IMG/VR virus record: IMGVR_UViG_3300037484_000176
Span: 1 to 35,800 of that record
Strand: one strand, 5' to 3'
DNA length: 35,800 nucleotides
Source of the DNA: a virus
Lineage: Duplodnaviria > Caudoviricetes
The notes below the pieces were generated by a model. It was not told where the DNA came from, made no database searches, and was given only the letters and a program-made list of their open reading frames with translations. The translations under genes were made by a program, and so were the position numbers. Each line of letters starts with the position of its first letter. The stretch's first letter is position 1. Positions 1 to 34,419 of this stretch are shown in pieces.

Positions 1-421
1 GCCCTATTTCGCAACGGTTTATTGTCACAATCCGAAGCGCTCCATCCATGCTTGTCCATGCCAGTTCGCCGTCCGACTGGTTAATCTTTTGCCCCTTGTC
101 CCACACAAGCCATTTCCCCGTCTGCGGCAAAATGTCCGAAAAATAGTTTCCACCCCAAATAATTTGGTCACGTGAAACCCGTCTTATTTCATCGAAAACA
201 TCAACCCCTGGCCTGCTGGCATCCCACCCAAGGTCTTCGTGATGGCTGCGCGTATTCACGCGCCCGTTCTTTGTGGACACCATGCCTGCTTGTCCAGACC
301 TACCAATCCCATACGGCGGGTCGGTCAAAATCAGGTCGCATTCCGGCAGCAGCGGCAGCACTTCCCGGCAATCGCCGTGCCACAGTTCAGCGTTTCCAAT
401 CACTACTTTTTCAGCCATCAT
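1..421 (-). CDS. DNA amino-methyltransferase (N6A/N4C, beta class), 3' end outside window
   Basis: Manual translation MMAEKVVIGNAELWHGDCREVLPLLPECDLILTDPPYGIG...IIWGGNYF...WLVWDK; DPPY catalytic motif; GAGG SD; start 421 or 418; open to the window edge (absent from the ORF track). Confidence 0.92.
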   Translation of the reverse strand, partial: MMAEKVVIGNAELWHGDCREVLPLLPECDLILTDPPYGIGRSGQAGMVSTKNGRVNTRSHHEDLGWDASRPGVDVFDEIRRVSRDQIIWGGNYFSDILPQTGKWLVWDKGQKINQSDGELAWTSMDGALRIVTINRCEIG

Positions 422-437
422 GCTTCCTCAAAAAGAC

Positions 438-502
438 CGCTAACACGTCATTCCAGCGGGACCGGGCGAAAAGCCGCCCGCCCCTGAATTCAGCCGTTGG
501 GC
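438..502 (+). other. Integron attC-like recombination site (65 bp)
   Basis: CGCTAAC-ACGTC-ATTCCAGC-GGGAC-CGGGCGAAAAGCCGCCCG-CCCCTGAAT-TCAGCC-GTTGGGC. This reads as R'' (..TAAC), 5-nt spacer, L'' with an extra C, central hairpin, L', 6-nt spacer and R' GTTRRRY. Confidence 0.85.
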
Positions 503-783
503 ACCAAAGCGCGCGCAGCCTGCCAGGCCAGCGGTTTCCGGCGCTCGTAATCCGCCTTCATTTCGGGGATTCTGCGGGCCTCGTGAAAAGGCAGGGTGTG
601 GTGGTTCTCGATCCTGGCCTTCATATCCTTCAGTTCCACAAGCTCTGTCAGCGCCTCGCGCAGCCGCTCAATCTCGTCTGCCGCTTCAGCCATCACCCCC
701 TCGGCAGCCTCGGCGTCTTTTTCTCCAAGAGTTCCCGCCTTAAACGGACACCCAAACCGCAGCCGCTCAATAATGTTTTCCAT
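490..783 (-). CDS. Hypothetical phage protein (cassette-like; stop codon inside the attC-like site)
   Basis: SD GGAGAGG 7 nt before ATG 783; AADEIERLREAL coiled-coil motif; ends ...ALVPNG* within the attC R' arm. Confidence 0.8.
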   Translation of the reverse strand: MENIIERLRFGCPFKAGTLGEKDAEAAEGVMAEAADEIERLREALTELVELKDMKARIENHHTLPFHEARRIPEMKADYERRKPLAWQAARALVPNG

Positions 784-803
784 CGTCATTCCTCTCCGGG
801 CCA

Positions 804-812
804 GTGCCCAAC
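804..812 (+). repeat. GTGCCCAAC, exact reverse complement of GTTGGGCAC at 496-504 (core/inverse-core pair)
   Basis: 9-bp inverted repeat containing RYYYAAC, lying between the upstream gene's stop (815-817) and the SD of the 490-783 gene. Confidence 0.75.
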
Positions 813-814
813 AC

Positions 815-952
815 CTACGCAGCCTTAGCCTTCTCGCCCTTCGGCACAATCTTCAACTCAGGCTTACGCTCGACCGCGGCCAGCAGCAGGCGCGCAAAGG
901 CTGCAGCGCTTGCCGGTGGCGGGGTTCCGGATGACTTAGAGGTGATTTTCAC
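815..952 (-). CDS. Small hypothetical protein (45 aa)
   Basis: GTG start overlapping the stop of 949-1338 (GTGA); MKITSKSSGTPPPASAAAFARLLLAAVERKPELKIVPKGEKAKAA. Confidence 0.6.
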   Translation of the reverse strand: MKITSKSSGTPPPASAAAFARLLLAAVERKPELKIVPKGEKAKAA

Positions 953-1338
953 GACTGTGCTCCGGTCGGCACATACAGGCCGCCGAATAACCGAATGACG
1001 GGATTGCGCGCGGCAGGCCGCACGTATGCCTTGTGCCCATTTCCATTGACGTTTTCCGCAAGGCGCGCGCCTATTTCTCGGGATGAAACGGTAAGGGGCA
1101 CCAGTGCGCGATAGACGTAGCAAGGCTTGCCGTCTGGGCGCTTGCCATTGCGGGCGCGCTTGATTTCCCGAGCGTTCGTCATGCGCAGAAGGTACTGCGC
1201 CAGGCGTCGATTGGTAATCTCGGCATCCGTTATCAGATCAACAACCATCGTGCGCAGTTCAACCATCGTGCGCGGCCCATCAATAAGCGCGTCGAGGATG
1301 CGCTGTCGCTGGCGTTCTGCTTGTGCCAATCGGGTCAT
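949..1338 (-). CDS. Putative winged-helix DNA-binding protein
   Basis: RILDALIDGPRTMVEL...LAQYLLRM...KPCYVY pattern; coupled to both neighbours by 4-nt overlaps. Confidence 0.7.
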   Translation of the reverse strand: MTRLAQAERQRQRILDALIDGPRTMVELRTMVVDLITDAEITNRRLAQYLLRMTNAREIKRARNGKRPDGKPCYVYRALVPLTVSSREIGARLAENVNGNGHKAYVRPAARNPVIRLFGGLYVPTGAQS

Positions 1339-1784
1339 TGGCCGTCCTTTGGCGCCGGCAACATCTTCGCTGCCTGCGCATGTTCTAAAAAAGTCTTGCC
1401 GCTCGGCAGCAGTAGCTGGCCAAGGAACGCGCCTTCAAAAGTCAAAATCCCCGTCTCGATGGCCGTAACCTGCCCTTTTATCCAGTCACGCAATATCGAG
1501 TAGACCGCCGTGCTGGCAATCTCCAGCGCCTTGCGCTCGTGGTCGGCCCTCGTTGCCCGGGTCCGGTTGGTGTACGGGTGCTCCTTCATCCACGCCGCCG
1601 CATAGCCGCGGATCGAAGCCCGCACGCTCACCGGCTGACCGCGAAACTCGAACTGGACCATGATTTCCTGCGCGTCGTCGTCGACCATGCTGCCGAACTT
1701 GGAGCAACCGAAGCCGCGCAGTATCTTCTGGATTTCACCCAGGGCGCGCTCGCCGCTGGTGCTGTTTTCATAGGGGAGCGGCAT
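1335..1784 (-). CDS. Conserved phage hypothetical protein
   Basis: MPLPYENSTSGERALGEIQKIL...ILRDWIKGQVTAIETGIL; TAATG coupling with the upstream gene. Confidence 0.85.
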   Translation of the reverse strand: MPLPYENSTSGERALGEIQKILRGFGCSKFGSMVDDDAQEIMVQFEFRGQPVSVRASIRGYAAAWMKEHPYTNRTRATRADHERKALEIASTAVYSILRDWIKGQVTAIETGILTFEGAFLGQLLLPSGKTFLEHAQAAKMLPAPKDGQ

Positions 1785-1987
1785 TAAGCGTCCCTCCATT
1801 GTTTGTCTGTGAGATCAGGCCTGGTGTCGGTATAGCCATCAACCCTGCATCGTTGCTGCGGCAGAAGAATTGACGGCTGTGCCTTCGGCCTGACGACTGC
1901 GCATTGTGGGCACGGCACGCCGAATTTCTCGCGTAGGCGCTTCTTGTGATCCTTGATGTCGCGGAACACTTCGACTTCTTCACTCAT
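1784..1987 (-). CDS. Small hypothetical protein, possible Zn-binding
   Basis: 67 aa with CPQC...C; operon-coupled. Confidence 0.75.
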   Translation of the reverse strand: MSEEVEVFRDIKDHKKRLREKFGVPCPQCAVVRPKAQPSILLPQQRCRVDGYTDTRPDLTDKQWRDA

Positions 1988-2159
1988 CGTTGCCTTCCCC
2001 GAATACCTTGGCCTCGATCTGCGCCAGCGCCTTTTCCTGCTTCTCGCTCAAGGTCGTGCGCTGGCGGACGCTTGGCATGAACTCGAACCGCTCCCACGAT
2101 GAAAGGTCGGAGCCGACCGCTTCGGCCAGGATGCGGTCTACGCGCTGGGCGGGGGTCAT
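1980..2159 (-). CDS. Hypothetical protein (59 aa)
   Basis: Manual translation MTPAQRVDRILAEAVGSDLSSWERFEFMPSVRQRTTLSEKQEKALAQIEAKVFGEGNDE; ATGA overlap with the upstream stop. Confidence 0.75.
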   Translation of the reverse strand: MTPAQRVDRILAEAVGSDLSSWERFEFMPSVRQRTTLSEKQEKALAQIEAKVFGEGNDE

Positions 2160-3234
2160 GCTTCACCGCCATTCGGATACCCGTCATGCTGCGCACCATA
2201 GAGCAGGCGGCCGGCGAGCTTCTTGCCGATACGGAATATGTGTTCGGCCTTGTCGTGTCGCGGCTCTGCATCCTCCCCGAGCTCATAGGTGCCGTTGGGG
2301 TTCACCCACCCGCCTATCCGGCTGTTGTCATAGCAAAAATTTGTATCTCCGGTCGCATGATCCTCGGAGACAAACTCCCCCCACTGCTTGAACAGGAACG
2401 GCACGCCAGCGTCTGCGCACTGTTCGCGCAGGCTGCGTACCCAATCCGGGTGCATGGGGCGGGCGTTGGGGCCGGACTCGCCGCCAACGATGACCCAATC
2501 CAGCAGGCGCACGCTGCCGTGACGCAGTGCCAGCGCACACTTCTGAGGGTCTCCATCTGGTCCCATGTGCCAGCGCAGTGCGCGGCCTCGGCAATGTCGC
2601 ACGCCGATTCGATGTCAACCGCCCCCAGCAGCGGCTCCATGCTCAGGAAACGCACCGCGGCCGGAACTGCCAGCAGCTTCGGAATATCGCGGTCGGCCTC
2701 TTCCTGGTTACAGATCGTGGCGCCGAGCCAGACGTTCGGAGGCAGGCCGTTCAGGCGCAGGATCTGGCGCAGCATGTTCTGCACGTTGCCAATCCGCTTC
2801 GTCAGCAGCATCCAGTCCAGGTTCGGCGTGCTTTCAATCAGCGCGAACAGGTCATCGCGCCACGCCGGGTCAACCTCGTTGTCGAACACGTCGGCCAGGC
2901 TCGCGCAGAAGACGCGGCGGCGGGCCGGCTTGAATAGGCGCGGCAAGTGGTTGCAGCTCGGGCAACATCCGTTGCGCACATCGGCCTCGCGCCACTCGCC
3001 GCGCCATTGGCACTCCGGGCATTCGACAAAGGCCTGAGTGTTCCACTGCAGCGGCTTCTTCCAGTTCCCAGCGCTGGTGCGCACGCGCGGCTTGCCTTGA
3101 CCCCATTCGACGCGCCCAAAGCGCTTGGTGTCGCGCTCGGCGTAGCAGTGATCGCAGGCCGGGCTGACCTTGGTGCAGCCCATCCACGGGTTGAAGGTTG
3201 AGTCGGCCCACTCAATTCCGGTCTGATCGCTCAT
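2156..3234 (-). pseudogene. Phage Gp37/Gp68 (DUF5131) family gene, frameshifted near 2540
   Basis: N-terminal part IEWADSTFNPWMGCTKVSPACDHCYA...FLSMEPLLG is in one frame; C-terminal part LDWVIVGGESGPNARPMHPDWVRSLREQC...FLFKQWG is in the -1 frame. Confidence 0.85.
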
Positions 3235-3467
3235 TCCGCTTCGATCCGCGTGAACTTGTGCTTGCCTTTGATGTGCGCATGCAGGTGCTTGCCGACCGAC
3301 TCGCACTTGCACAGGTCGGCGTACTGCTCGGCGCTGACGCCTTCATAGTGGTAGCGGCCGCCGCTGGCGTACTCGACGCACAGCGTATTGGTGGCTCCGC
3401 AATGGCCGTGTGCCTTGACCTGGCTTGACTTGCAGGACTGCATGGTGGGGTTGGGTTTGGTGGTCAT
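3231..3467 (-). CDS. KTSC domain protein
   Basis: SSQVKAHGH...TLCVEYASGGRYHYEGVS...SVGKHLHAHIKG fits the KTSC pattern; AAGGAG SD. Confidence 0.85.
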   Translation of the reverse strand: MTTKPNPTMQSCKSSQVKAHGHCGATNTLCVEYASGGRYHYEGVSAEQYADLCKCESVGKHLHAHIKGKHKFTRIEAE

Positions 3468-3519
3468 GTTCTTCTCCTTGATTCGGGCCGGCCGACACTC
3501 AGGCCGGCCGGTTCATTGC

Positions 3520-3777
3520 TTAGAAGCGATCCTTGGCATCCGGGCGGCCGAACAGGACCGTGAAACCGGCGGCTTCCTTGATCTTGTCGATCTCGGTTGC
3601 AACGGCGGTCTTGAACACGCGATCCGGACGGACAAGCTCGTACCAGAAGCTCAAGGCGCTGCCAGCCTTGCCAGTGGCGTCGACCGCCTTGACCACTTCG
3701 GCCAGGGCGTCGGATGCGTCGTCGAGGAAAACGCCGCCATTCAGGTGGCGCAGGGTGTCTACGATGGAACGGGACAT
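3520..3777 (-). CDS. Probable deletion-fusion of a YfdP-like N-terminus and a YfdQ/DUF2303 C-terminus
   Basis: MSRSIVDTLRHLNGGVFLDDASDALAEVVKAVDATGKAG joined to LSFWYELVRPDRVFKTAVATEIDKIKEAAGFTVLFGRP; AAGGAG SD. Confidence 0.65.
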   Translation of the reverse strand: MSRSIVDTLRHLNGGVFLDDASDALAEVVKAVDATGKAGSALSFWYELVRPDRVFKTAVATEIDKIKEAAGFTVLFGRPDAKDRF

Positions 3778-3781
3778 GCGG

Positions 3782-4060
3782 TTACTCCTTGTGGTTGGAA
3801 AGGGTGAGGCTGGCATTTGCACCAGGCGGGTCATACGGCAGATCAATCCCGGTGGCCGCGCCCAGCGCCGTGAGTGCTTCCTTGACGCGGAACAGTTCGG
3901 GGCCGACCAGCCCGGCCTGGCGGGCGAACGGAACGCCGCTCATTTGCACGGCCTCCTGTTGGTGCAGGCGCTCGTAGGCAAGCCGCAATATCTCGCGCAT
4001 GGTTTCGATGTCGCCGTCGAAAAGCTCGATGAACACTCGGGCGGATTTGTCGATTCTCAT
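3782..4060 (-). CDS. Hypothetical protein
   Basis: 92-aa ORF, ATGA-coupled to the YqaJ gene. Confidence 0.75.
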   Translation of the reverse strand: MRIDKSARVFIELFDGDIETMREILRLAYERLHQQEAVQMSGVPFARQAGLVGPELFRVKEALTALGAATGIDLPYDPPGANASLTLSNHKE

Positions 4061-5736
4061 GCTGCCACCCTGAGCGCGCGCGCGGCCTTGAATTGCTCGT
4101 ATGCCATCAGGAAGGCGCGCATCCGGCCGCGTTCCTTGTCGGGCACGCTCTGCTCGTTGAGGAAGTCGCGCACGTCGTCACCGGCATCGACCAGAACTGC
4201 GCGCTTTTCATCCGATGTTGGTGGGGTACTCGCTGAAGCTGTCTCATACAAAGCCTCGGCTTGCGGGCTCGCTGGCCTCGCCTCATCAGCTTTCCCCCGT
4301 TGATCTGCTGCTGCAACGTCGGCAACCCGCTTGGCCTCGGCTTGGCGCTCCGCTTCGACCGCTGCCGCGGCGCGCGCTTCGCCAGCCTTGCGCTCGGCCT
4401 CGACGGCTGCAGCAATGCGGGCTTCCTCGGCTTTGCGTGCGTCTTCCTTGCGTACCGCTTCCTGCTGGATCCGCATGGCGTGCAGCGCGGCGAAGTCCTC
4501 GCGCGCCTTGGCGCAGACCTGGGCGAAGTCCGGGAACAGGTGGCTGGTGTCGTTCTCGGTGCCGATCAGCAGGCTCTTGCGGTTGGCCTCGATGGTGTCG
4601 GCAATCTCGTTCGCCTCGATCTTGGCATTCGCCAGCGCGCCGGCAACCTTGTCGCGCATGGAGTCGAGCGACTTCAGGCCCTTTATGGCGTCGGCAAATA
4701 CGCCGGGGTTCAGCGGCGGCAACCAGTTTCCACCGATGCGCTGCACCAGCGCGGCGCGGTGCTGCATGAGCGCCTGCTGCGCCTCGGACACGATTTCGCC
4801 ACGGCGATTCTCTTTTTCGGCCTTCACCAGCTTGTCCAGCGCCAGCCGCTTCGAGCGCATCTGTTCGCTGATCGCGTCCACGGCGCGGAACAGTTCGTCG
4901 ATGCTGGCCGTCTGCGACAGTGCCTGCGATTTCGCCAGCGCCAGCCGTTCCTCTCCGTCCTTGAGGAACTTCACCATCTTGTCGGCGTCGGCGAAGTCCT
5001 GATCGTTGACCAGTTCAGTCTTGATGCCGTCGATAAACTTCTGTGCCGACAGCTTGAAGGCGTCGAGGTTGGTCGCCAGCACCTTGCCCTCGACCTGAAC
5101 GAACAGGGCCGGCAGGGCTTCGATGGTGGCGGCTACCGGGGCGGCGACGGTTTCGACGTGGACATACTCGGCCAGATCCTTGGCAAACTGCTTCCAGCCT
5201 GAAATCAGCGCGGCGCGGCGCGACGGCATCGACGTGTACCACATGCCAACCGTGTTTTCCGGCGTGCCGTCGCTGGTGGTGAAATAGACCCTCTCGGCGC
5301 CCGATACCAGAAGCTGCTGCTCAAGCTGCCAGTAGTAATGCGGCTCAAGCTGGCCGGCACGGATGGCATCGGCCAGGGTGGCATTCCACAACTTGTTTTC
5401 CCAGCACAGGTCTTCAAGCATGGTCAGGCCGTCGAACGAGGCCAGCAGCGGCAGGCCGTCGACCTCAAGCGATCCGGTGGCCGGGTACAGTTCAACCTGC
5501 ATAAGTCCCTCGGCGATTGGCCGCGCGGCGGCTTCGGCGGCATGGCCGCGGTCAAACAGGCGCTGCGTGCCGGCATCCACGTCCTCGGCCAGTCCGGTCG
5601 CCTTCTGCTTCAGCAGGGCGGTGCGGGTCTGGTACTTGCTGGCGCCCATCATGGCCGGCGCTTCGCTGGCGGTGAAGTGCTTGGCGCGGATGTCCAGCCA
5701 TTCCTGGCTGCCCTGTGCTGCGTCGATGACGTTCAT
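4057..5736 (-). CDS. YqaJ-like (lambda-exo type) recombination exonuclease with long coiled-coil tail
   Basis: QGSQEWLDIR..FTASEA...GHAAE...ASFDGL...WENK...YYWQLEQQL nuclease motifs. Confidence 0.92.
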   Translation of the reverse strand: MNVIDAAQGSQEWLDIRAKHFTASEAPAMMGASKYQTRTALLKQKATGLAEDVDAGTQRLFDRGHAAEAAARPIAEGLMQVELYPATGSLEVDGLPLLASFDGLTMLEDLCWENKLWNATLADAIRAGQLEPHYYWQLEQQLLVSGAERVYFTTSDGTPENTVGMWYTSMPSRRAALISGWKQFAKDLAEYVHVETVAAPVAATIEALPALFVQVEGKVLATNLDAFKLSAQKFIDGIKTELVNDQDFADADKMVKFLKDGEERLALAKSQALSQTASIDELFRAVDAISEQMRSKRLALDKLVKAEKENRRGEIVSEAQQALMQHRAALVQRIGGNWLPPLNPGVFADAIKGLKSLDSMRDKVAGALANAKIEANEIADTIEANRKSLLIGTENDTSHLFPDFAQVCAKAREDFAALHAMRIQQEAVRKEDARKAEEARIAAAVEAERKAGEARAAAAVEAERQAEAKRVADVAAADQRGKADEARPASPQAEALYETASASTPPTSDEKRAVLVDAGDDVRDFLNEQSVPDKERGRMRAFLMAYEQFKAARALRVAA

Positions 5737-6734
5737 TATTCGGCTCCTTCGGTGTTGGTTGCGGTCTTTCCGGGCAGCGCACGGACCATCTCGATTTGCT
5801 TGTCGGTTAGCGTGTTGCGCGTCTTCAGCATGGCAATCAGGCTGTCGTGAGTCTTCTTGCCGCTGGCAAGCAATTTCTCCCAGCCCGGCATATCGGCATC
5901 GAACTTGTCATCCGGATAGGGTGGCAGCGGCTCCTTCTGCTTGTCTTCGCCGGCTGCGGACGGATCGAACCACTCCGCTGCGGTTGACATGCCGTCGCGC
6001 AGGCTGACGTAGATTTTCTTCAGGCTGACCACCTGGGCGGGCTGGATGGCGTCGATACGGCGCTGAATGCGCGTTTCGATCTGCTCCTTCGTGACGCCGA
6101 ATGCGGCAAACGCCTCGATCATGTTGGCCATGGCTTCCGCGCTGCAGTCTGCCGTCGTCTTGAGGGTGACGTCGGCCTGTTTCATCGCGGCCTCGGTGAC
6201 GTCGCCCGGTATGATCGACAGCAGGCAGGCACGGACGCGGCGCTGCGCCATGTTAGCGACGAGCTCGTAAATCTCGCGTTCTTCCTTGATCGGATAGCCG
6301 CCGTTGCGGGTATCGCGCCAGTGCGGCACGATGAACTGCAGCGGCTTGCGGGTCATGGTTTCCATGTCCCAGGCGTAGGCCTCGACCTCGGAATAGGCTT
6401 TGCCGTCTGCGCCGATGCCGCGAGACAGTTCACGGAAACCGAAATCAATGTTCCCCCACTGCTGGGCAATCGCTTCGGCCGCGCGGATCGACGGGCCGGA
6501 GACATCGGAGCCGCCCTTGGCGTACTGGTATTGCGATACCGCCGCAAGGGTGGGGCGCGCAAAGGCGTTCATGATCTTGTCCATGGCGACAACCGGATCG
6601 CGCGGAAAGCGCTTGGCCATCATTACGGCTGCTTGAACTTCGGCAATCGCGCGCTGCTCATTGCCGCGCGCCATTGCGCCGCCGGCTGCCTGCGATGCCG
6701 GGGCTGGGAATGGGTTTGTAACTGGTGCGTTCAT
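5736..6734 (-). CDS. Probable ssDNA-annealing protein (recombinase partner of YqaJ)
   Basis: AKRFPRD...GPSIRAAEAIAQQWGN...RRVRACLL motifs; coupled to the exonuclease gene. Function inferred from position. Confidence 0.7.
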   Translation of the reverse strand: MNAPVTNPFPAPASQAAGGAMARGNEQRAIAEVQAAVMMAKRFPRDPVVAMDKIMNAFARPTLAAVSQYQYAKGGSDVSGPSIRAAEAIAQQWGNIDFGFRELSRGIGADGKAYSEVEAYAWDMETMTRKPLQFIVPHWRDTRNGGYPIKEEREIYELVANMAQRRVRACLLSIIPGDVTEAAMKQADVTLKTTADCSAEAMANMIEAFAAFGVTKEQIETRIQRRIDAIQPAQVVSLKKIYVSLRDGMSTAAEWFDPSAAGEDKQKEPLPPYPDDKFDADMPGWEKLLASGKKTHDSLIAMLKTRNTLTDKQIEMVRALPGKTATNTEGAE

Positions 6735-7005
6735 TTAATGCTCCATCCAATAAAGAAAGCCAGCAGCAGCACGACGACGGCAAGGCCGACCCAGCCGCTG
6801 CGGCTGCGTTGAAGAAAGGTAATGCGCCCCGGTGCCGGGTCGCTGTGGCCGAACGCTTCGCGGCACAGCGCGGAAAGCGCGCGGTCAGGTTGTCATCGGT
6901 ACAGGCGGTGCCGTCGACGAGGAAGGACAGCGGGGCCGGGCGGCGCCCGCGCTGTGCCGCGACGAGTAGCGGGCTGCGGAGTTGGGTCTGTTGGCGAATG
7001 GTCAT
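6731..7005 (-). pseudogene. Small membrane protein gene, frameshifted near 6862
   Basis: ...ARFPRCA continues in the -1 frame as EAFGHSDPAPGRITFLQRSRSGWVGLAVVVLLLAFFIGWSIK*, which has a TM helix and an ATGA overlap with the next gene. Confidence 0.65.
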
Positions 7006-7589
7006 GGTTGTTCTCCTTTGGGTGCGGCGGATAGAGCAATGTCGATTGCATCATCAAGGTCATTTGCCCCTTTGCTGTTTGGGATTTCTCTGTCATCCAT
7101 CATGTCCAAAATCAGGCCTGGACGATAATTGCGCAGCCATCTGTATCTGTCGGCATCCTTTTCCACGTCTGTCGGTATGGTTGGGGCGGAGGTGTAGGCG
7201 AGGTCAGCTCGGACGTATGGCACATAGCAGTCCAGCGCAGCGTCTTCGCACCAGTTGATTCCTTCGTGGTCATCCGGGAACGGCTCGTCGTCATGGATGC
7301 TTTCTTCTGAAACCAGCAGGTAGATTTTCTCGGGCGCGGTCAGCCGAACCTCGCGGCCTTCCGGCTCACCCTGCCGCTTGATCGCTTCCCACGCTGCACA
7401 CGAACCGCATTGCTCTTTTGTTTTCGTGCCGCCGTAGCAACAGTGACCGAGTGGAGAGACCTGCTGCTTGATCGCTTCCTTGAGTGCGGCGATGGTTATA
7501 TCGCGCTCATTGATAATGTCCTGACATTCACGAAGCAGTAATACTGCTTCGTCGTGCGTAAGCTGGCCGTCCATTACTTGCTTGCTCAT
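7002..7589 (-). CDS. Ea/Ead-like mosaic early protein
   Basis: KDADRYRWLR and LDDAIDIALSAAPKGE motifs typical of lambdoid early-arm mosaic proteins. Confidence 0.75.
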   Translation of the reverse strand: MSKQVMDGQLTHDEAVLLLRECQDIINERDITIAALKEAIKQQVSPLGHCCYGGTKTKEQCGSCAAWEAIKRQGEPEGREVRLTAPEKIYLLVSEESIHDDEPFPDDHEGINWCEDAALDCYVPYVRADLAYTSAPTIPTDVEKDADRYRWLRNYRPGLILDMMDDREIPNSKGANDLDDAIDIALSAAPKGEQP

Positions 7590-7590
7590 T

Positions 7591-7929
7591 TCAATCCCCC
7601 ACAAAGACCGGCGCGATCGTCCGGCGCCTGCACTCTGCATAGAACTGCCCCAGCGACTCGCCGAACAGGCGCGTCGATTCGGCAACTTTTTCCGGGGTGC
7701 GGGCGTACTCGATCACGGCGTGCGGCTCGTTGCTGACGCCCTGGCGCACGTTGATCGGCGCCCACACGTCGGCCTTGGCCGGGGCCATGCCGCGATCCAC
7801 CAGCCAGCGGCGTTCGTTGGCGATCAGGATTTCGTCGGCGCTCAGCAGCGTTTCGTATGGGGTGGCGTCAAGCCCGAGCGCGCGGCAATAGGCGGCGGTT
7901 GTGCGGTTGAGTTCGTTGAACAGGTACAT
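7591..7929 (-). CDS. Hypothetical protein, first gene after PL
   Basis: 112-aa ORF with AGGAGG SD. Confidence 0.8.
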   Translation of the reverse strand: MYLFNELNRTTAAYCRALGLDATPYETLLSADEILIANERRWLVDRGMAPAKADVWAPINVRQGVSNEPHAVIEYARTPEKVAESTRLFGESLGQFYAECRRRTIAPVFVGD

Positions 7930-7989
7930 CGCGCTTCCTCCTTATTGGTTGTCCACTTACCGGGCCGCGATGTTTTGCGACTTGAAATA

Positions 7990-8019
7990 AGTTTATAGGA
8001 CACTTAACGAAGGTGTCAA
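7990..8019 (-). promoter_or_regulatory. PL promoter with operator
   Basis: Minus strand TTGACA (8019-8014), 18 bp, TAAACT (7995-7990); operator GTTTAT-AGGACA-CTTAAC (7991-8008) resembles the OR palindrome. Confidence 0.8.
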
Positions 8020-8047
8020 GCGTTTACTTTACTTTTTCTTCGGGGCG

Positions 8048-8072
8048 AAAAAAAACCCGCCGAAGCGGGCTT
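8048..8072 (-). terminator. Intrinsic terminator of the immunity operon
   Basis: Minus strand GCCCGC-TTCG-GCGGGT continuing into an 8-T run. Confidence 0.9.
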
Positions 8073-8158
8073 GATGCCTTAGTGTTTTGATGCTCAGTCG
8101 TTAGGTGTGTTGTTGTATGGGCCCAGCGTCTGCGGCTTTAAATTTCTGTTGTTTGAAG

Positions 8159-8467
8159 TCAATTGCACCGTGCCACACACCTGCCGTGTGCCGCAGCGCA
8201 GTTGGCAATACATTGGCTGCTGTTCTCACATTGGCTAATGCAAATCCCCTGCTCGCTGGCGCAGTCTCCCATGCACTGCCCAATATCGTTTATTGCGAGA
8301 AGCATTGTTTCCAAACTTCGCCCGGAAGAATGGCGGTCTCCATTACGGCTTTGTTCGCATCGGTTGCTGATGGATAGACTTGCTGTTTCTGTCGCGCTCT
8401 CGGTAATCGAGTTTGCAAATGCACTTGCGCTAATCGCCATGAGCAATACTGCAAGAATGTTTTTCAT
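8159..8467 (-). CDS. Small secreted cysteine-rich protein
   Basis: Signal peptide MKNILAVLLMAISASAFA; C-terminus with four Cx3C pairs; GGGGAG SD; lower GC than the flanks. Confidence 0.85.
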   Translation of the reverse strand: MKNILAVLLMAISASAFANSITESATETASLSISNRCEQSRNGDRHSSGRSLETMLLAINDIGQCMGDCASEQGICISQCENSSQCIANCAAAHGRCVARCN

Positions 8468-8518
8468 AGTGGCTCCCCTTATGTGTTGCGGCAAGAAGAC
8501 GGCGCTGCCGCTGTGCGC

Positions 8519-8764
8519 CTATTCGTCGTCATTCCGCGCCCGGATGGCTATGTCGTCAGATAGCATGCAGACGACGCCCAAGGCGAACAGCGGGTTTCTG
8601 TACGCTTCGCCAGCCGTGTCGACGATACACGAACGCCGCTTCATCATCGCACCGTAAGCGATCCCGATCAATTCCCCGCGCCTGGCCTCATGTAACAGAA
8701 ACTCCAGCGCCTCCACCGTGTCATGAGATACCGCTTCCCTGACGATGGAGAACGGGGCTTTCAT
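8519..8764 (-). CDS. Conserved hypothetical protein in the immunity operon
   Basis: SHDTVEALEFLLHEARRGELIGIAYG; ATGA-coupled to cI. Confidence 0.8.
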   Translation of the reverse strand: MKAPFSIVREAVSHDTVEALEFLLHEARRGELIGIAYGAMMKRRSCIVDTAGEAYRNPLFALGVVCMLSDDIAIRARNDDE

Positions 8765-9186
8765 TTGTCCGGCCCCAAGGCGCGTGATTTTTTTGCCTTT
8801 CCCTTTTCTCTTGGCGGGCCGCCAGTAACGGCGGTGGCTGGGCGCGTTGGCGGCGGACGCGAAGCCTGATCGATCACTCCTTGAAGCGCGTCAATCATGC
8901 CGTCAGAAACGTCCTGACTTGCAATTCTCCGGATCAGGTCGCGCCGCTGCGCAGACAGTCCAGCCCAAGCGTCCCCCTGCGCGCTGACCGGTACGGCCGC
9001 ATCAAGCGGAGTGTCCAAGTACATCGATGGCATGTCATAGGTCTTTTCCAGCCGACGCGCGGCCTTCTCCCCGAATGACGCCTTCCCCTTTTTTAGTTGG
9101 GATAGGTAGCTCTTTTCTTCTTCCGGCATTGCCATGTCTTTGAACCACAACGCAAGACGGGCGCGCCTGATTTCTACTATTTCCAT
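8761..9186 (-). CDS. cI: CI-like repressor (141 aa, HTH, no S24 peptidase domain)
   Basis: MEIVEIRRARL...SYLSQLKKGKASFGEKAARRLEKTYDMPSMYLD is a phage repressor N-domain; divergent from the cro-like gene. Confidence 0.85.
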   Translation of the reverse strand: MEIVEIRRARLALWFKDMAMPEEEKSYLSQLKKGKASFGEKAARRLEKTYDMPSMYLDTPLDAAVPVSAQGDAWAGLSAQRRDLIRRIASQDVSDGMIDALQGVIDQASRPPPTRPATAVTGGPPREKGKAKKSRALGPDK

Positions 9187-11631: not shown

Positions 11632-12458
11632 GCGTGCGCGTGATGTCCCTCGTGTGGGACAACTTCAACCGGGGCGGATCCGAGAAGCTGGCCATGCTGG
11701 CCCTTGCCGACTGGTGTAATGACCAGGGCGGCAGTTTGCATCCGTCCGTGGCAACGGTGGCCAGGAAGATCAACCTGACCGAAAAGCAGGCTCGGGTGAT
11801 TCTTCATCGGCTGATCGACGAGGGGTGGCTGGCGGTAATCGGCAACGAATTTGGCGGCAATCCTGGGCAGTCTCGACAGTATCGGCTGAACGTCGAAAAG
11901 CTGTTAACCCCTCCCGCCGAGGTTAGCCCTACCCCTCCCGTAGACGTTACCCCTCCCGTAGACGTTACCCCTCCCGTAGACGTTACCCCTCCCGCCGAAG
12001 TGACCCCTCCCGTGGAGGTTCGTGACCCCTCCCGTGGAGGTTCGTTTACCCCTCCCGTGGACGGGAGCCAATCCACCATAGAACCACCAATAGAACCACC
12101 AGTAGTAACCCCCCTACCCCCTGACGCGGTTGAAGACAGGTTCATGGAGTTCTGGACTGCATACCCGAAGAAGGTCGGCAAGGAGGCTGCGCGCAAGGTG
12201 TGGGTGAAGGTCAAAAAACCCGCCGAATCGCTCGATGCAATCTTGATCGCACTGGCCTGGCAGTCGAAGTCCGCACAGTGGACGAAGAGCCATGGCCAGT
12301 TCATCCCCAACCCGTCGACCTACCTGAGTCAGCAGCGTTGGCTTGACGAGCCGCCCGTCGTCACCACGCCGAAGCTGACGGCCGTAGGCCAGAAAAGCGC
12401 CAGTGCGGCGAGCCGCTGGCTTGATTCGCAGGGATTCCAAATGGAGAAAACCGTATGA
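11628..12458 (+). CDS. Replication initiator (lambda O-like, N-terminal HTH)
   Basis: EKLAMLALADWCND...PSVATVA; C-domain FMEFWTAYPKKVGK...FIPNPSTYLSQQRWLDE; internal iterons. Confidence 0.92.
   Translation: MSVRVMSLVWDNFNRGGSEKLAMLALADWCNDQGGSLHPSVATVARKINLTEKQARVILHRLIDEGWLAVIGNEFGGNPGQSRQYRLNVEKLLTPPAEVSPTPPVDVTPPVDVTPPVDVTPPAEVTPPVEVRDPSRGGSFTPPVDGSQSTIEPPIEPPVVTPLPPDAVEDRFMEFWTAYPKKVGKEAARKVWVKVKKPAESLDAILIALAWQSKSAQWTKSHGQFIPNPSTYLSQQRWLDEPPVVTTPKLTAVGQKSASAASRWLDSQGFQMEKTV
11907..12067 (+). repeat. Replication origin iterons
   Basis: Eight copies of ACCCCTCCCG at 11907, 11931, 11949, 11967, 11985, 12003, 12025 and 12048 (mostly 18-bp period), ending in the inverted repeat CTCCCGT-GG-ACGGGAG. 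Confidence 0.88.
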
Positions 12459-24737: not shown

Positions 24738-26854
24738 CGAACACGACCCAAGCAACCGGCGACACCGCCGCCCAGCAGAACTGGGACCGTTACCGCTACG
24801 GCATCGAGCGCGGCCACCTGTCCTACATCATGCAGGCGATCCTGTGCGAACGGAACTACCTTGGCGGTGGGCTGCAATGGGACGACGCCGACCGCGACCA
24901 GTTGACCGCAGACGGCAAGCCGGCGCTGGAAGCCAACGAGATCATGCCGGCCCTGAATTCAGCCATCGGCTACCAGATCCACAACCGCATGGACATCGCG
25001 TTCCGCCCGCGCAAGGTAGTGAGCCAGGCGACCGCAGACATCCGATCGAAGCTGGCGATGCAGATCGCCGACAACAACAAACTGCACTGGATTGAAACCG
25101 GCGTGTTCTCGGACGGCATGATCGAGCAGCGCGGCTTTTACGACGTGCGCATGTGCTACGAAACCAACGTGCTGGGCGAACTGGCCATCACCGACCTCGA
25201 CCCGCGCGACGTGATCCCCGACCCGGACGCCAAGAGCTACGACCCGCAGAAGTGGGGCGACGTGACCGTGACCCGCTGGTACAGCCTTGACGACATTGAG
25301 GCGCTACACGGCCGCAAGGTGCGCGATGAGGTCGAAAAGGTCCACGGTTCCGAAGGCGAACAGGACTTTGGCGACGGCGTTGATGAGGCCGGCGACGATG
25401 GCGGCGAGCGCAACAAGTTCGGCGACAACCAGAGTGGCGGCCAGAGCTATTACGCCTTCTATCGCGGCAGCGCCAAGGACGACACCGCGCGCTACCGCGT
25501 CATCGACCGCCAACGTTTCGTCTACGAAATGGCCGACGTCGTGATTTCTCAGTACGGCGACGTGCATGTCGTGACCAAGACCAACGGTGACGCAATCGCG
25601 GCCGAGATTGCCGCCGGTGGCACGCCATCCAAGCGCATGACGCGCCGCGTCAAGTGGACCGTGACAACCCGCTACGTGACGCTATTCGACGAGATCAGCC
25701 CCTACGACCGCTTTACCGTGGTGCCGTTCTTCCCATATTTCCGCCGCGGCAAGACGCGCGGCATGGTGGACAACGCGATCGACCCGCAGAAGATTCTGAA
25801 CAAGGGCTTGAGCCAGTTCGTGCATATCCTCAACTCGGCGGCCAACTCCGGGTGGACCTACGAGCAGAACAGCCTGACCAACATGACCGGCGAGGATCTT
25901 GAGGATCGCGGCGGAGAGAACGGCCTTGTGATCGAGCACGCCAAGGGCACCCAGGCGCCGAAGAAGATCGAGCCGAGCCAGATCCCGAACGGCGTCGACC
26001 GCCTGATGGACCGCGCCTTGCTCACTTTGAAAGAAGTGACCGTACCCGACGCCATGCGCGGATCGCAGGGCGCCGAAGTCTCGGGCGTTGCGATCCAGAG
26101 CCGGCAGTCGGCCAGCCAGCAGCAACTTGCCGTGCCGCTGGACAGCCTAGCGCGCACCCGCGCGTTCATTGCCGGCTGGATCGACTACGCCATCAAGAAC
26201 TTCTACGACGCCCCGCGCATCGTCCGCATCACCGAAACCAACCCGGACACCGGCGCCGAGGAACACGAGTTCATCGAGGTCAACCAGCCTGACGGCCAGG
26301 GCGGCTACCTCAACGACATGAGCGTGGGCGAGTACGACCTGGTGATTACCGAGCAGCCGATGCAGGTGACGTTCGAGAACGGCCAGTTCACCCAGGCGCT
26401 CGAAATGCGCAAGACCGGCGTGGCCATCCCGGACACCGCCATCGTCATGAGTTCCAACCTGTCGCGCAAGCAGGATGTCATCAAGCAGATGGAAGGTATG
26501 GGCGGCAAGTCACCGGAAGAAACCGCACTTGCAGAAGCGCAGACCGCCAAGATCAACGCCGAGACGAAGCACCTCGAAGCCAACACCATCAACAAGCTGG
26601 TCGAATCCACTTTCAGCGCCATGCAGTCGGCACGCACCATCGCGGAAACCCCGCAGACCGCCGGCATGGCCGACAGCATCCTCAAGTCGGCCGGCTTCAA
26701 GGACATGGACGCCGCGCCGATCGTGCCGGAAGCGCCGGCAGGAATGCCCGGCTTGGACATGGCACCAATCGCAGAGAACACCTCGCCAAACTTTCCGCCA
26801 AGGCCAGAGAATCCGGCGGCTGGAATAAATACTGGAATAGAGGGCGGAGAGTGA
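24734..26854 (+). CDS. Portal protein (podovirus type)
   Basis: 706 aa after terL; YLGGGLQW...GKPALEAN...GMVDNAIDPQ..LNK...SGVAIQSRQ. Confidence 0.92.
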   Translation: MTNTTQATGDTAAQQNWDRYRYGIERGHLSYIMQAILCERNYLGGGLQWDDADRDQLTADGKPALEANEIMPALNSAIGYQIHNRMDIAFRPRKVVSQATADIRSKLAMQIADNNKLHWIETGVFSDGMIEQRGFYDVRMCYETNVLGELAITDLDPRDVIPDPDAKSYDPQKWGDVTVTRWYSLDDIEALHGRKVRDEVEKVHGSEGEQDFGDGVDEAGDDGGERNKFGDNQSGGQSYYAFYRGSAKDDTARYRVIDRQRFVYEMADVVISQYGDVHVVTKTNGDAIAAEIAAGGTPSKRMTRRVKWTVTTRYVTLFDEISPYDRFTVVPFFPYFRRGKTRGMVDNAIDPQKILNKGLSQFVHILNSAANSGWTYEQNSLTNMTGEDLEDRGGENGLVIEHAKGTQAPKKIEPSQIPNGVDRLMDRALLTLKEVTVPDAMRGSQGAEVSGVAIQSRQSASQQQLAVPLDSLARTRAFIAGWIDYAIKNFYDAPRIVRITETNPDTGAEEHEFIEVNQPDGQGGYLNDMSVGEYDLVITEQPMQVTFENGQFTQALEMRKTGVAIPDTAIVMSSNLSRKQDVIKQMEGMGGKSPEETALAEAQTAKINAETKHLEANTINKLVESTFSAMQSARTIAETPQTAGMADSILKSAGFKDMDAAPIVPEAPAGMPGLDMAPIAENTSPNFPPRPENPAAGINTGIEGGE

Positions 26855-27522
26855 TGCCTGATCGATACGGAAGATACACGGTGCTGCGTGAAGCCGGGAG
26901 CAAGCACGGGATGCGGGTTGTTCTGTGCAGATGCGACTGCGGAACAGAGCGCGAGGTGTACTTCAAGAACTTGCGGTCTGGAAATTCAACTTCGTGCGGA
27001 TGCAGGGCATCAGAGGTCACTTCGGCGAGAAACATGAAGCATGGCCAAGCGAAAACTCCAACCTGGCTGATATGGGTTGCGATGGTGCAACGATGCGGAC
27101 CAACAGCCAGCGGCAAAAACAGAGCATGGTATTTCGACAAAGGAATCCGTGTTTGCGATCGCTGGAAGTCATACGAGAACTTCTTTGCGGACATGGGTGA
27201 TCGCCCCGATGGGCACCAGATCGACAGAATTGATACGAACGGAAATTACGAGCCTGGAAACTGCCGGTGGGTTACTCCGAAGATCAATTCACGGAACCGG
27301 ACCAACAACACAAGGATTGAATTTGAAGGCGAATTGTTGACCGTTGCCGAATGGGCCGAAAAGAAGTGCTGGCCAAGGCACGTCATATCAAATCGCCTTC
27401 AATACGGATGGCCGATTGAGAGGATTCTCACCGAGCCTGTTCGAAAAATTGCCAATCGTCCCTCAAACCCGGCTGTCGGCATGAACGCAGGCATTGAGGG
27501 CGGGGAACCGGCCCTTCAGTAA
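26851..27522 (+). CDS. Free-standing HNH homing endonuclease
   Basis: CRCDCG...STSCGC...W..MVQRC...GIRVCDRW...IDRIDTNGNYEPGNCRWVT...NSRN; lower GC. Confidence 0.92.
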   Translation: MMPDRYGRYTVLREAGSKHGMRVVLCRCDCGTEREVYFKNLRSGNSTSCGCRASEVTSARNMKHGQAKTPTWLIWVAMVQRCGPTASGKNRAWYFDKGIRVCDRWKSYENFFADMGDRPDGHQIDRIDTNGNYEPGNCRWVTPKINSRNRTNNTRIEFEGELLTVAEWAEKKCWPRHVISNRLQYGWPIERILTEPVRKIANRPSNPAVGMNAGIEGGEPALQ

Positions 27523-33547: not shown

Positions 33548-33575
33548 TTGACAGTCGCCGTAGCCATCTTATAAT
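33548..33575 (+). promoter_or_regulatory. Consensus sigma70 promoter
   Basis: TTGACA (33548-33553), 16 bp, TATAAT (33570-33575). Confidence 0.8.
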
Positions 33576-33606
33576 GAATCTTTCCGTTCATTTAGGGAGT
33601 GGTCAC

Positions 33607-34419
33607 ATGAAGTACGCTGCGGCGATTGCTAAGGGGATCATTCGTACTCGCACGGGGGCGTGGCGTATAGGCATGACCACGTACATCCAAGTCGCGTGCA
33701 GTGTGTGTGGCGAAGATTGTTTTGTGGTCAGGCACCTTGCGAAAGAAGGTGTTGCGCCAGTTTGCGGGCAGAAATGCAATGCCAAACGAAAGTCTTTAGC
33801 GCACACCGGGGCCAGGTGTGTGCAAAACGGGTATGTGGTGGTGCATCACTTAGGGCACCCGATGGCGAGTAAAGCCGGCCGTTTATTGGAGCATCGCTTG
33901 GTCATGTCCGAGCATTTGGGTCGATTACTCGAACCCGGTGAGGTTGTCCACCACAAGGACGGAAATCGCAGCAACAACGCGATTGAGAATCTAGAACTGA
34001 TGTCCGGGCACAAAGAGCACGCTGAAGCCCATGCCAAAGAAAGCGAGTTGTACCAGCTCCGGCAACAAGGCAAGTTGCGCTGCTCGGCTTGCAAGGAAGT
34101 GAAGTCGCTGGATAGTTTCGACATCGGCAACACGATGCGCTACGGGCGCAAGAACCAGTGCAAGGAATGCAGGGCCGCGGCCTATCTCAAGGCGCACCCT
34201 GACACCCGCCCGCACGATGTAATCATGCGCGAGCGGCACCAGAACAGGTGGCTTGCTTCGGATGCCTACAAGCTGTTTCTTGCTGGGCAGAAGGTTTGCC
34301 GTCACTGCAACGAGACGAAGCCGATTGACGACTTCTCGCCCTACGCGGGGAACAAGGACGGGCGCATGAGCTACTGCCGCGTGTGCCGTCGCAGCATAGC
34401 GAAAGAGAAAAAAGCATGA
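33607..34419 (+). CDS. HNH endonuclease with multiple CxxC zinc-binding repeats
   Basis: EHRLVMSEHLGR.L..GEVVHHKDGNRSNNAIENLELM; C-terminal CSAC..CKEC and CRHC..CRVC; GGGAG SD before ATG 33607. Confidence 0.92.
   Translation: MKYAAAIAKGIIRTRTGAWRIGMTTYIQVACSVCGEDCFVVRHLAKEGVAPVCGQKCNAKRKSLAHTGARCVQNGYVVVHHLGHPMASKAGRLLEHRLVMSEHLGRLLEPGEVVHHKDGNRSNNAIENLELMSGHKEHAEAHAKESELYQLRQQGKLRCSACKEVKSLDSFDIGNTMRYGRKNQCKECRAAAYLKAHPDTRPHDVIMRERHQNRWLASDAYKLFLAGQKVCRHCNETKPIDDFSPYAGNKDGRMSYCRVCRRSIAKEKKA

Follow-up and report, generated by a model that had tools for sequence, protein, structure and literature searches.

Integrons have generally been treated as bacterial devices, in which the strand rules keep the cassette genes facing Pc. 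In phages, attC sites, CALINs and integrons have been reported as well, and IntI1 recombined five of the six sites put to the test (Qi et al. 2023, PMC9892861). The phage CALINs of that paper resemble the locus described here, with attC sites in phage genomes and often a DNA methyltransferase as cargo, whereas its text describes the complete integrons as host-type or class 1 pieces. The same text, figures apart, passes over ORFs that lie antisense to attC. Such an inverted layout is found in the published phage CALIN MW202573 (L356:2069-3738; loci are denoted here by L and a number), where our covariance model gave five minus-strand matches amid early genes annotated on the plus strand, unlike in TJE1, a phage of Qi et al. 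(2023), which has its sites and genes on the same strand in the ordinary way. A further integron screen found none (PMC13366799), and a literature search with most subscription journals outside its range returned no account of inverted phage cassettes. Clusters of attC sites in phages have already been published, and it is the inversion of the ORFs that we did not find described in the text of Qi et al. (2023).

SALINs and attG insertions also have some likeness to the locus, with, in the part of the preprint available to us, a single attC, no integrase nearby and a bare core at one cassette end (Loot et al., 10.1101/2022.09.11.507474). In the normal attG insertion described there the bare core lies at the cassette start and a full attC at its end, whereas the bare core of our locus is an R'' end. 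It is not a CALIN either (at least two attC sites without intI), as the contig holds one site only.

The window analysed here is an entire contig, a linear virus record of 35,800 nt that is estimated to be 58% complete. Its genes mark it as a temperate phage of the lambdoid type, with a leftward block of small genes that includes one for a RecE-like exonuclease, repressor-like and Cro-like genes near 8.8-9.5 kb, replication genes, terminase, portal and capsid. The attC locus lies at the left extremity of this leftward block, where the contig end cuts a DNA methyltransferase gene (Table 1). No TIGR02249 (IntI) match was found on this 58% complete contig, and neither an attI nor, by the covariance model, a second attC was found in the 35.8 kb. 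As the contig breaks inside the array, the absence of IntI says little; the contigs of four sequencing runs did not extend it to the left.

Table 1. Features at the left end of the window (positions in the 35,800-nt contig).
Feature	Position	Strand	Remarks
DNA methyltransferase gene, cut by contig end	2..421	-	phrog_67, E 1e-15; cargo of the cassette with attC 438-502
Leader of methyltransferase cassette	422..444	-	R'' core read on bottom strand, ribosome-binding site, start codon
Complete composite attC	438..502	+	54.3 bits, E 2.9e-11 (E-values rough); predicted crossover G496/T497
attC parts, left arm	R'' 438-444; spacer (5 nt) 445-449; L'' 450-457	+	L'' with one bulged C; followed by central hairpin
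attC parts, right arm	L' 483-489; spacer (6 nt) 490-495; R' 496-502	+	CTGAAT at 484-489
Small phage ORF, 97-99 aa	490..789	-	start 783 or 789; reads through R', AAC = Asn; own ribosome-binding site
Second cassette body	497..812	+	G/TT to matching R''; ends 9/9 complementary
Leader and R'' (806-812) of second cassette	791..812	+	same 22 bases in viral contigs; L'', hairpin, L' and R' absent
Upstream early-operon ORF, 45 aa	815..952	-	stop 2 bases from bare R''

The site at 438-502 is a real attC. The preliminary description, made from the letters alone, had assigned it a full attC anatomy, and each motif was found at the position claimed for it: R'' ends in AAC, R' starts with GTT, L'' and L' pair, and the extrahelical base lies on the R''-L'' arm. 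For the covariance model, the IntI of a viral contig was used as query to collect 80 bacterial loci with relatives. Scanning upstream of intI in 77 of these (L271-L273 left out) yielded 191 candidate sites on the expected strand and 12 on the other, and 82 of 114 short candidates were aligned with the attC pairing. The match of 438-502 to this model is significant and occurs on the + strand only. Since the + strand is the attC top strand, both neighbouring genes lie on the bottom strand, as had been described, the right one ending in VPNG with its stop (490-492) inside the attC of its neighbour. Near-identical sites are present in the viral arrays L052, L070 and L110; an Rfam search gave nothing relevant, and BLAST against phage and plasmid records only chance matches. 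The further attC sites that the preliminary description had proposed to look for did not turn up on this contig. Of 14 loose candidates from a heuristic scan of the window, 438-502 alone survived the model, and the next match in the 35.8 kb (12305-12343, 11.4 bits, E 0.88) was rejected as it lies inside the replication gene. A run of short direct repeats is present inside the replication initiator gene (11920-12065), likely the iterons of an origin.

Folding energy adds little to this. The free fold of 438-502 is no more stable than that of shuffled sequences (z -0.83 for the top strand and -1.40 for the bottom strand), and the significance of the site therefore derives from the profile, not from energy. 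With the fold constrained to the recombinogenic form, a rough estimate of its probability on the bottom strand is 4.7e-3, about equal to that of the top strand and lower than in 147 of 150 bacterial sites, a comparison set that was pre-filtered for good folding. The composite R boxes pair poorly. The low estimate suggests that the composite site may be a weak recombination substrate.

The second cassette begins at the G/TT of this site. The 9-mer at this boundary (496-504) is indeed, over all nine bases, the reverse complement of 804-812; both occur once in the 35.8 kb, and dinucleotide shuffles of 505-1500 produced such a complement 24 times in 5000. The phage integron L173 holds a cassette with these two ends around a different gene. 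The 22 bases 791-812, comprising ribosome-binding site, leader and R'', recur unchanged 11 times in 10 viral contigs, before 10 different ORFs, none of which is that of the window. In nine of the 11 copies a model-detected attC follows, and in the other two (L169 and L174) the site starts and then breaks off; contigs of three sequencing runs likewise continue from the leader into attC arms. Because the same 22 bases recur in this way, nine times ahead of a full attC, 804-812 is, judged by comparison of the sequences, a true cassette end. In the window neither an L'' nor a model match lies behind position 812: the arms are gone from the first base after AAC, and the boundary is the bare core, lacking an L-stem, that had been described. 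Cassette 497-812 lacks a complete terminal attC, and its ORF lies opposite the attC top strand. One contig each of runs X1 and X2 also covers the right junction, the former without difference and the latter with 13 differences over 142 bases, and the junction is therefore not an assembly slip; X1 may represent the sample from which the window came. The contigs of four sequencing runs contained neither circles of this cassette, which had been proposed as a check, nor its precise deletion.

The preliminary description had left two options for 804-812, a truncated attC or an entry point resembling attI or attG. Most likely it is the R'' of a lost attC, as its leader elsewhere runs into attC arms that are missing here. 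An attG-like secondary target, used in a rare top-strand crossover through which the unit 445-812 entered with its hairpin behind the ORF, is an unlikely origin. In its favour, attG requires only GWT (Loot preprint, 10.1101/2022.09.11.507474), and the top-strand cut falls where our junction lies, 0-2 bases from AAC; one crossover on the top strand, at a secondary site, would produce an identical scar (Nivina 2016, PMC5027507). The junction is moreover common to a second population, that of run X2. However, such a reading fits only with a top-strand crossover, and an attG insertion has the bare GWT core at the cassette start, whereas here, by the polarity of the site and by the relatives, the bare core is an R'' end. 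The supposed target half (438-444 with its leader) is an ordinary cassette end in L173, the hairpin of the relatives travels on the other side, and the minus-strand bases before the core are unlike the attI-like motifs of the relatives. Erosion, furthermore, does happen, since the sites of L169 and L174 with the same leader break off inside the arms.

Homologs of the methyltransferase, with 39-52% identity, were found in seven fetched loci, and those of L246, L268, L172, L204 and L221 are among the called inverted cassettes. The 10 bases that end its cassette, with a similar ribosome-binding site, also end the first cassette after attI in L173, where the gene is a different one. ORF 490-789 has no PHROGs or Pfam family, and the Atlas clusters closest to it (scores 0.91-0.92) consist of bacterial and viral proteins without a name. 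At least 46 viral loci carry its N-terminal motif, and mainly that motif, none with an attC match among those listed; at least two related metagenome loci are likewise attC-free among the matches listed, and the viral and metagenome scans gave no close copy of the ORF as a cassette among their listed matches. A scan for the 3' end of gene 815-952 returned six chance matches only. For the next gene, 949-1338, there is one viral relative (L110/L353); two attC sites lie there between xis and int, and the gene downstream of the relative is a different one. In L110 (1604-4403) these are two inverted cassettes and an attI-like end, located between excisionase and phage integrase without an intI.

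Antisense ORFs predominate among the called cassettes of viral arrays of this site type. The arrays were gathered by site-pattern and IntI scans, one duplicate locus and five weak or off-strand matches being dropped, and the orientation of a cassette between two detected sites was called from an ATG close to one of its ends together with a reading frame that spans 80% of it. Altogether 72 viral cassettes have their gene on the bottom strand, 13 on the top strand and 70 are uncalled (n=155), whereas the bacterial control gave 3, 58 and 25 (n=86); in this comparison the bacterial sites were located by heuristic and the viral sites by model, and several loci are close kin. The viral loci with intI contributed 37 bottom-strand and 8 top-strand cassettes, 14 with both and 26 with none (n=85), and five of the eight top-strand cassettes come from L259, an ordinary bacterial-type integron. 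For the other viral arrays, a set of 28 loci chosen from pattern matches for their attC-like look, the numbers are 35, 5, 16 and 14 (n=70), and for the bacterial intI loci 3, 58, 4 and 21 (n=86). The genome loci L271-L275, five in number, have the IntI that comes nearest to the phage type and gave 6, 1, 4 and 2 (n=13). With a noisier longest-ORF caller the bacterial cassettes were 80 top, 8 bottom and 11 unclear (n=99), those of viral intI loci including L271-L275 were 23, 51 and 41 (n=115), and those of the other viral arrays 5, 42 and 28 (n=75). The bacterial L271-L275 assemblies are labelled Sulfuricella, Nevskia, Azoarcus, Rhodocyclaceae and Pseudomonadota; with their phage-type IntI and mostly inverted cassettes they may contain prophages, and may include hosts suited to laboratory work.

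Many of the inverted ORFs run past the end of their cassette, and in 42 of 43 such viral bottom-strand ORFs the AAC is read as Asn, as in the ORF of the window. In L171 and L172 one and the same ORF ends in different tails, which depend on the neighbouring cassette. Most read-through phage ORFs take their stop from the neighbouring site, unlike those of canonical integrons. The canonical bacterial systems are alike in the anatomy and polarity of attC, in the G/TT junctions and in the complementarity of R' and R''; in the relatives, too, attI lies at the 5' side of intI and attC on the opposite strand. What differs is that the phage ORFs are antisense to attC, whereas in the bacterial control top-strand genes prevail (58 against 3). 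They point towards intI and are consequently unreadable from a Pc at attI. A layout with cassette genes and intI co-directional is known and recurs in the related phage integrons; unlike in that layout, however, intI and attC are here on opposite strands in the regular manner, and the ORFs are the reversed part.

A viral contig with the same attC family encodes an IntI well above the TIGR02249 cut-off (474.8 against 265 bits), and relatives of this viral IntI are present in 33 viral loci. At the 3' side of the ORFs the arrays end in a bare GTT that matches the first R'' by at least eight bases in 37 of 54 cases, mostly behind a shared attI-like motif; among the 37, one follows a missed attC and one is probably due to chance. 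At the promoter side a match is present at no more than 6 of the 48 ends; attC-like arms come after five of these and a further R'' after the sixth. In loci with an intI, this gene lies behind the attI-like site, on the strand of the genes, and the phage integrase comes next in L240, L246, L247 and L261, with tail genes beyond it in L246 and L247. Both types of cassette end of the window occur, with other genes, in the viral contig L173, which has an intI. A quick tree made from 100 IntI proteins places 19 located beside inverted arrays and six other viral ones on one side of a branch and 73 bacterial and two viral ones on the other, with a support of 89, below the bar of the tool, and a sampling that follows the query; this grouping can serve as a lead only. 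The virus Rctr41k has an IntI-like gene and no model match in its bases 1-9000.

Several of these loci have an organisation of their own. L070 (1844-5886, on the same contig as L239) is a complete inverted-cassette integron whose far end joins a cut reverse-transcriptase (RT) gene at G/TT. This RT gene belongs to a diversity-generating retroelement, with an Avd gene upstream, and the array appears to interrupt it. In L241, where two arrays flank intI, and in L274, two near-identical attI-like sites lie upstream and downstream of intI, each heading its own array.

Exchange in the relatives takes place at G/TT. All 12 array-internal breakpoints in three pairs of related elements are located at GTT (8/8 for L249 against L250, 2/2 for L263 against L267 and 2/2 for L179 against L235), the position where the preliminary description had proposed to look for them. 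The R''-side hairpin stays with its cassette, with a similarity of 0.95-1.0, against 0.44-0.87 where the neighbour changes. As this hairpin travels with the ORF, the mobile unit has normal polarity and only the gene inside is reversed. The earlier idea that early genes are shuffled as attC-bounded cassettes thus holds for the related phages, with antisense ORFs and junctions at G/TT; for the cassette of the window itself, neither a circle in the contigs of four runs nor, among the matches listed, a copy elsewhere was found. Opposite-strand recombination, which had been offered as the mechanism, is not supported: in the relatives the hairpin travels with the ORF and the bare attI-like end lies at the 3' side of the ORFs, both of which correspond to ordinary bottom-strand polarity. 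Nor is an ordinary phage tyrosine recombinase needed as the shuffling enzyme, as many related phages encode a true IntI beside their normal integrase.

It is very improbable that the sites are integron-derived hairpin repeats shuffled by homologous recombination of the phage RecE/RecT type, or RNA signals, without any IntI. The RecE-like exonuclease is encoded on the contig and IntI is not, the site family recurs in many contigs, and the folding estimate is low, all of which would suit such a reading. Yet the 12 breakpoints lie at GTT between dissimilar hairpins and not inside long homology, and intact intI genes and attI-like sites adjoin many of the arrays. Least probable of all is a lone bacterial cassette site inserted by chance by a host integrase, for although the contig has a single attC and no integrase, and such SALINs are, according to the available part of the preprint, common in bacterial genomes (Loot et al., bioRxiv 10.1101/2022.09.11.507474), there are two adjacent cassette ends here, antisense ORFs and leaders common to phage arrays, and a comparison of 78 inverted cargo proteins with 58 bacterial cassette proteins, a small sample, gave no match.

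We consider it likely that the integron attC at 438-502, which separates two early genes of the phage that face the reverse way, is the promoter-side end of a phage cassette array shuffled by IntI. In the relatives a unit consists of G/TT, the antisense ORF with its leader, and R'' with the hairpin, and related elements differ by whole units; the arrays are headed by an attI-like site where the early operon has its 3' end, and behind this there often come intI and, next, the phage integrase. By analogy, an integron integrase would shuffle the array of the window by ordinary bottom-strand recombination at G/TT, and the order of the genes suggests that the cassette genes are read from the leftward early promoter of the phage. 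New cassettes would enter at attI, last in the operon, and push the older ones towards the promoter, the fixed frame across G/TT presumably keeping the genes translatable after a swap. Cassette 497-812 would then be the oldest; with its hairpin lost it would no longer be excised normally, and may now be a fixed gene of the phage. The methyltransferase cassette retains its attC and may in principle still be excisable. Its start would be located off the contig, to the left of base 1, as would the attI and any intI, and the integrase could be encoded off the contig or be supplied by the host or by another phage. More speculatively, if replication starts from an origin to the right, at the repeats in the replication gene, the lagging strand would be templated by the bottom strand, a situation that in the part of that work available to us favours attC folding and excision (Loot 2017, PMC5371416).

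Several observations sit less well with a shuffled array in this phage. The contig, 58% complete, has no IntI, attI or second attC; ORF 490-789 was not found as a cassette elsewhere among the matches listed, and the contigs of four runs showed no circle or precise deletion. The bottom-strand recombinogenic probability is low and about equal for the top strand, none of the six matching distal array ends (of 48) has a bare R'' without a trace of L'', the junction immediately follows AAC, where a crossover on the top strand would place it too, and 70 of the 155 viral cassettes are uncalled for orientation. The attC in the window is real, and so is the cassette, though disabled; both are part of a widespread phage variant of the integron system.

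Taken by itself the locus is a modest example, with one site, a cut contig and no integrase, and its interest lies mainly in the family. Its own contribution is a cassette that was apparently fixed by loss of the hairpin. Phage arrays that obey the same strand rules with their genes backwards offer a site-specific route to mosaicism of the early region, and the genes swapped include methyltransferases, which likely guard against restriction. Tentatively, and at somewhat less than even chance, we suggest that temperate phages of Proteobacteria run an integron branch of their own, with a phage-adapted IntI lineage, an attI where the early operon ends and a distinct, mirror-image pool of cassettes read from the phage promoter with frame-locked ends, in which ordinary phage genes are recruited into shared attC-leader frames and fixed again by hairpin loss. 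If so, the window would show the last step, the fixation of a gene, and such phages would be a place to watch cassettes being formed. How cassettes are made is, to our knowledge, an open question, and the joining of one leader-attC frame to many unrelated phage genes bears on it: a single leader carries 11 different ORFs, 10 in viral contigs and that of the window.

Elsewhere in the window, the gene for a DUF5131 protein (phrog_2045, 2156-3312) is split over two overlapping frames, by a frameshift or an assembly error. Two genes for HNH endonucleases (26851-27522 and 33574-34419) lie within the block of head and structural genes.
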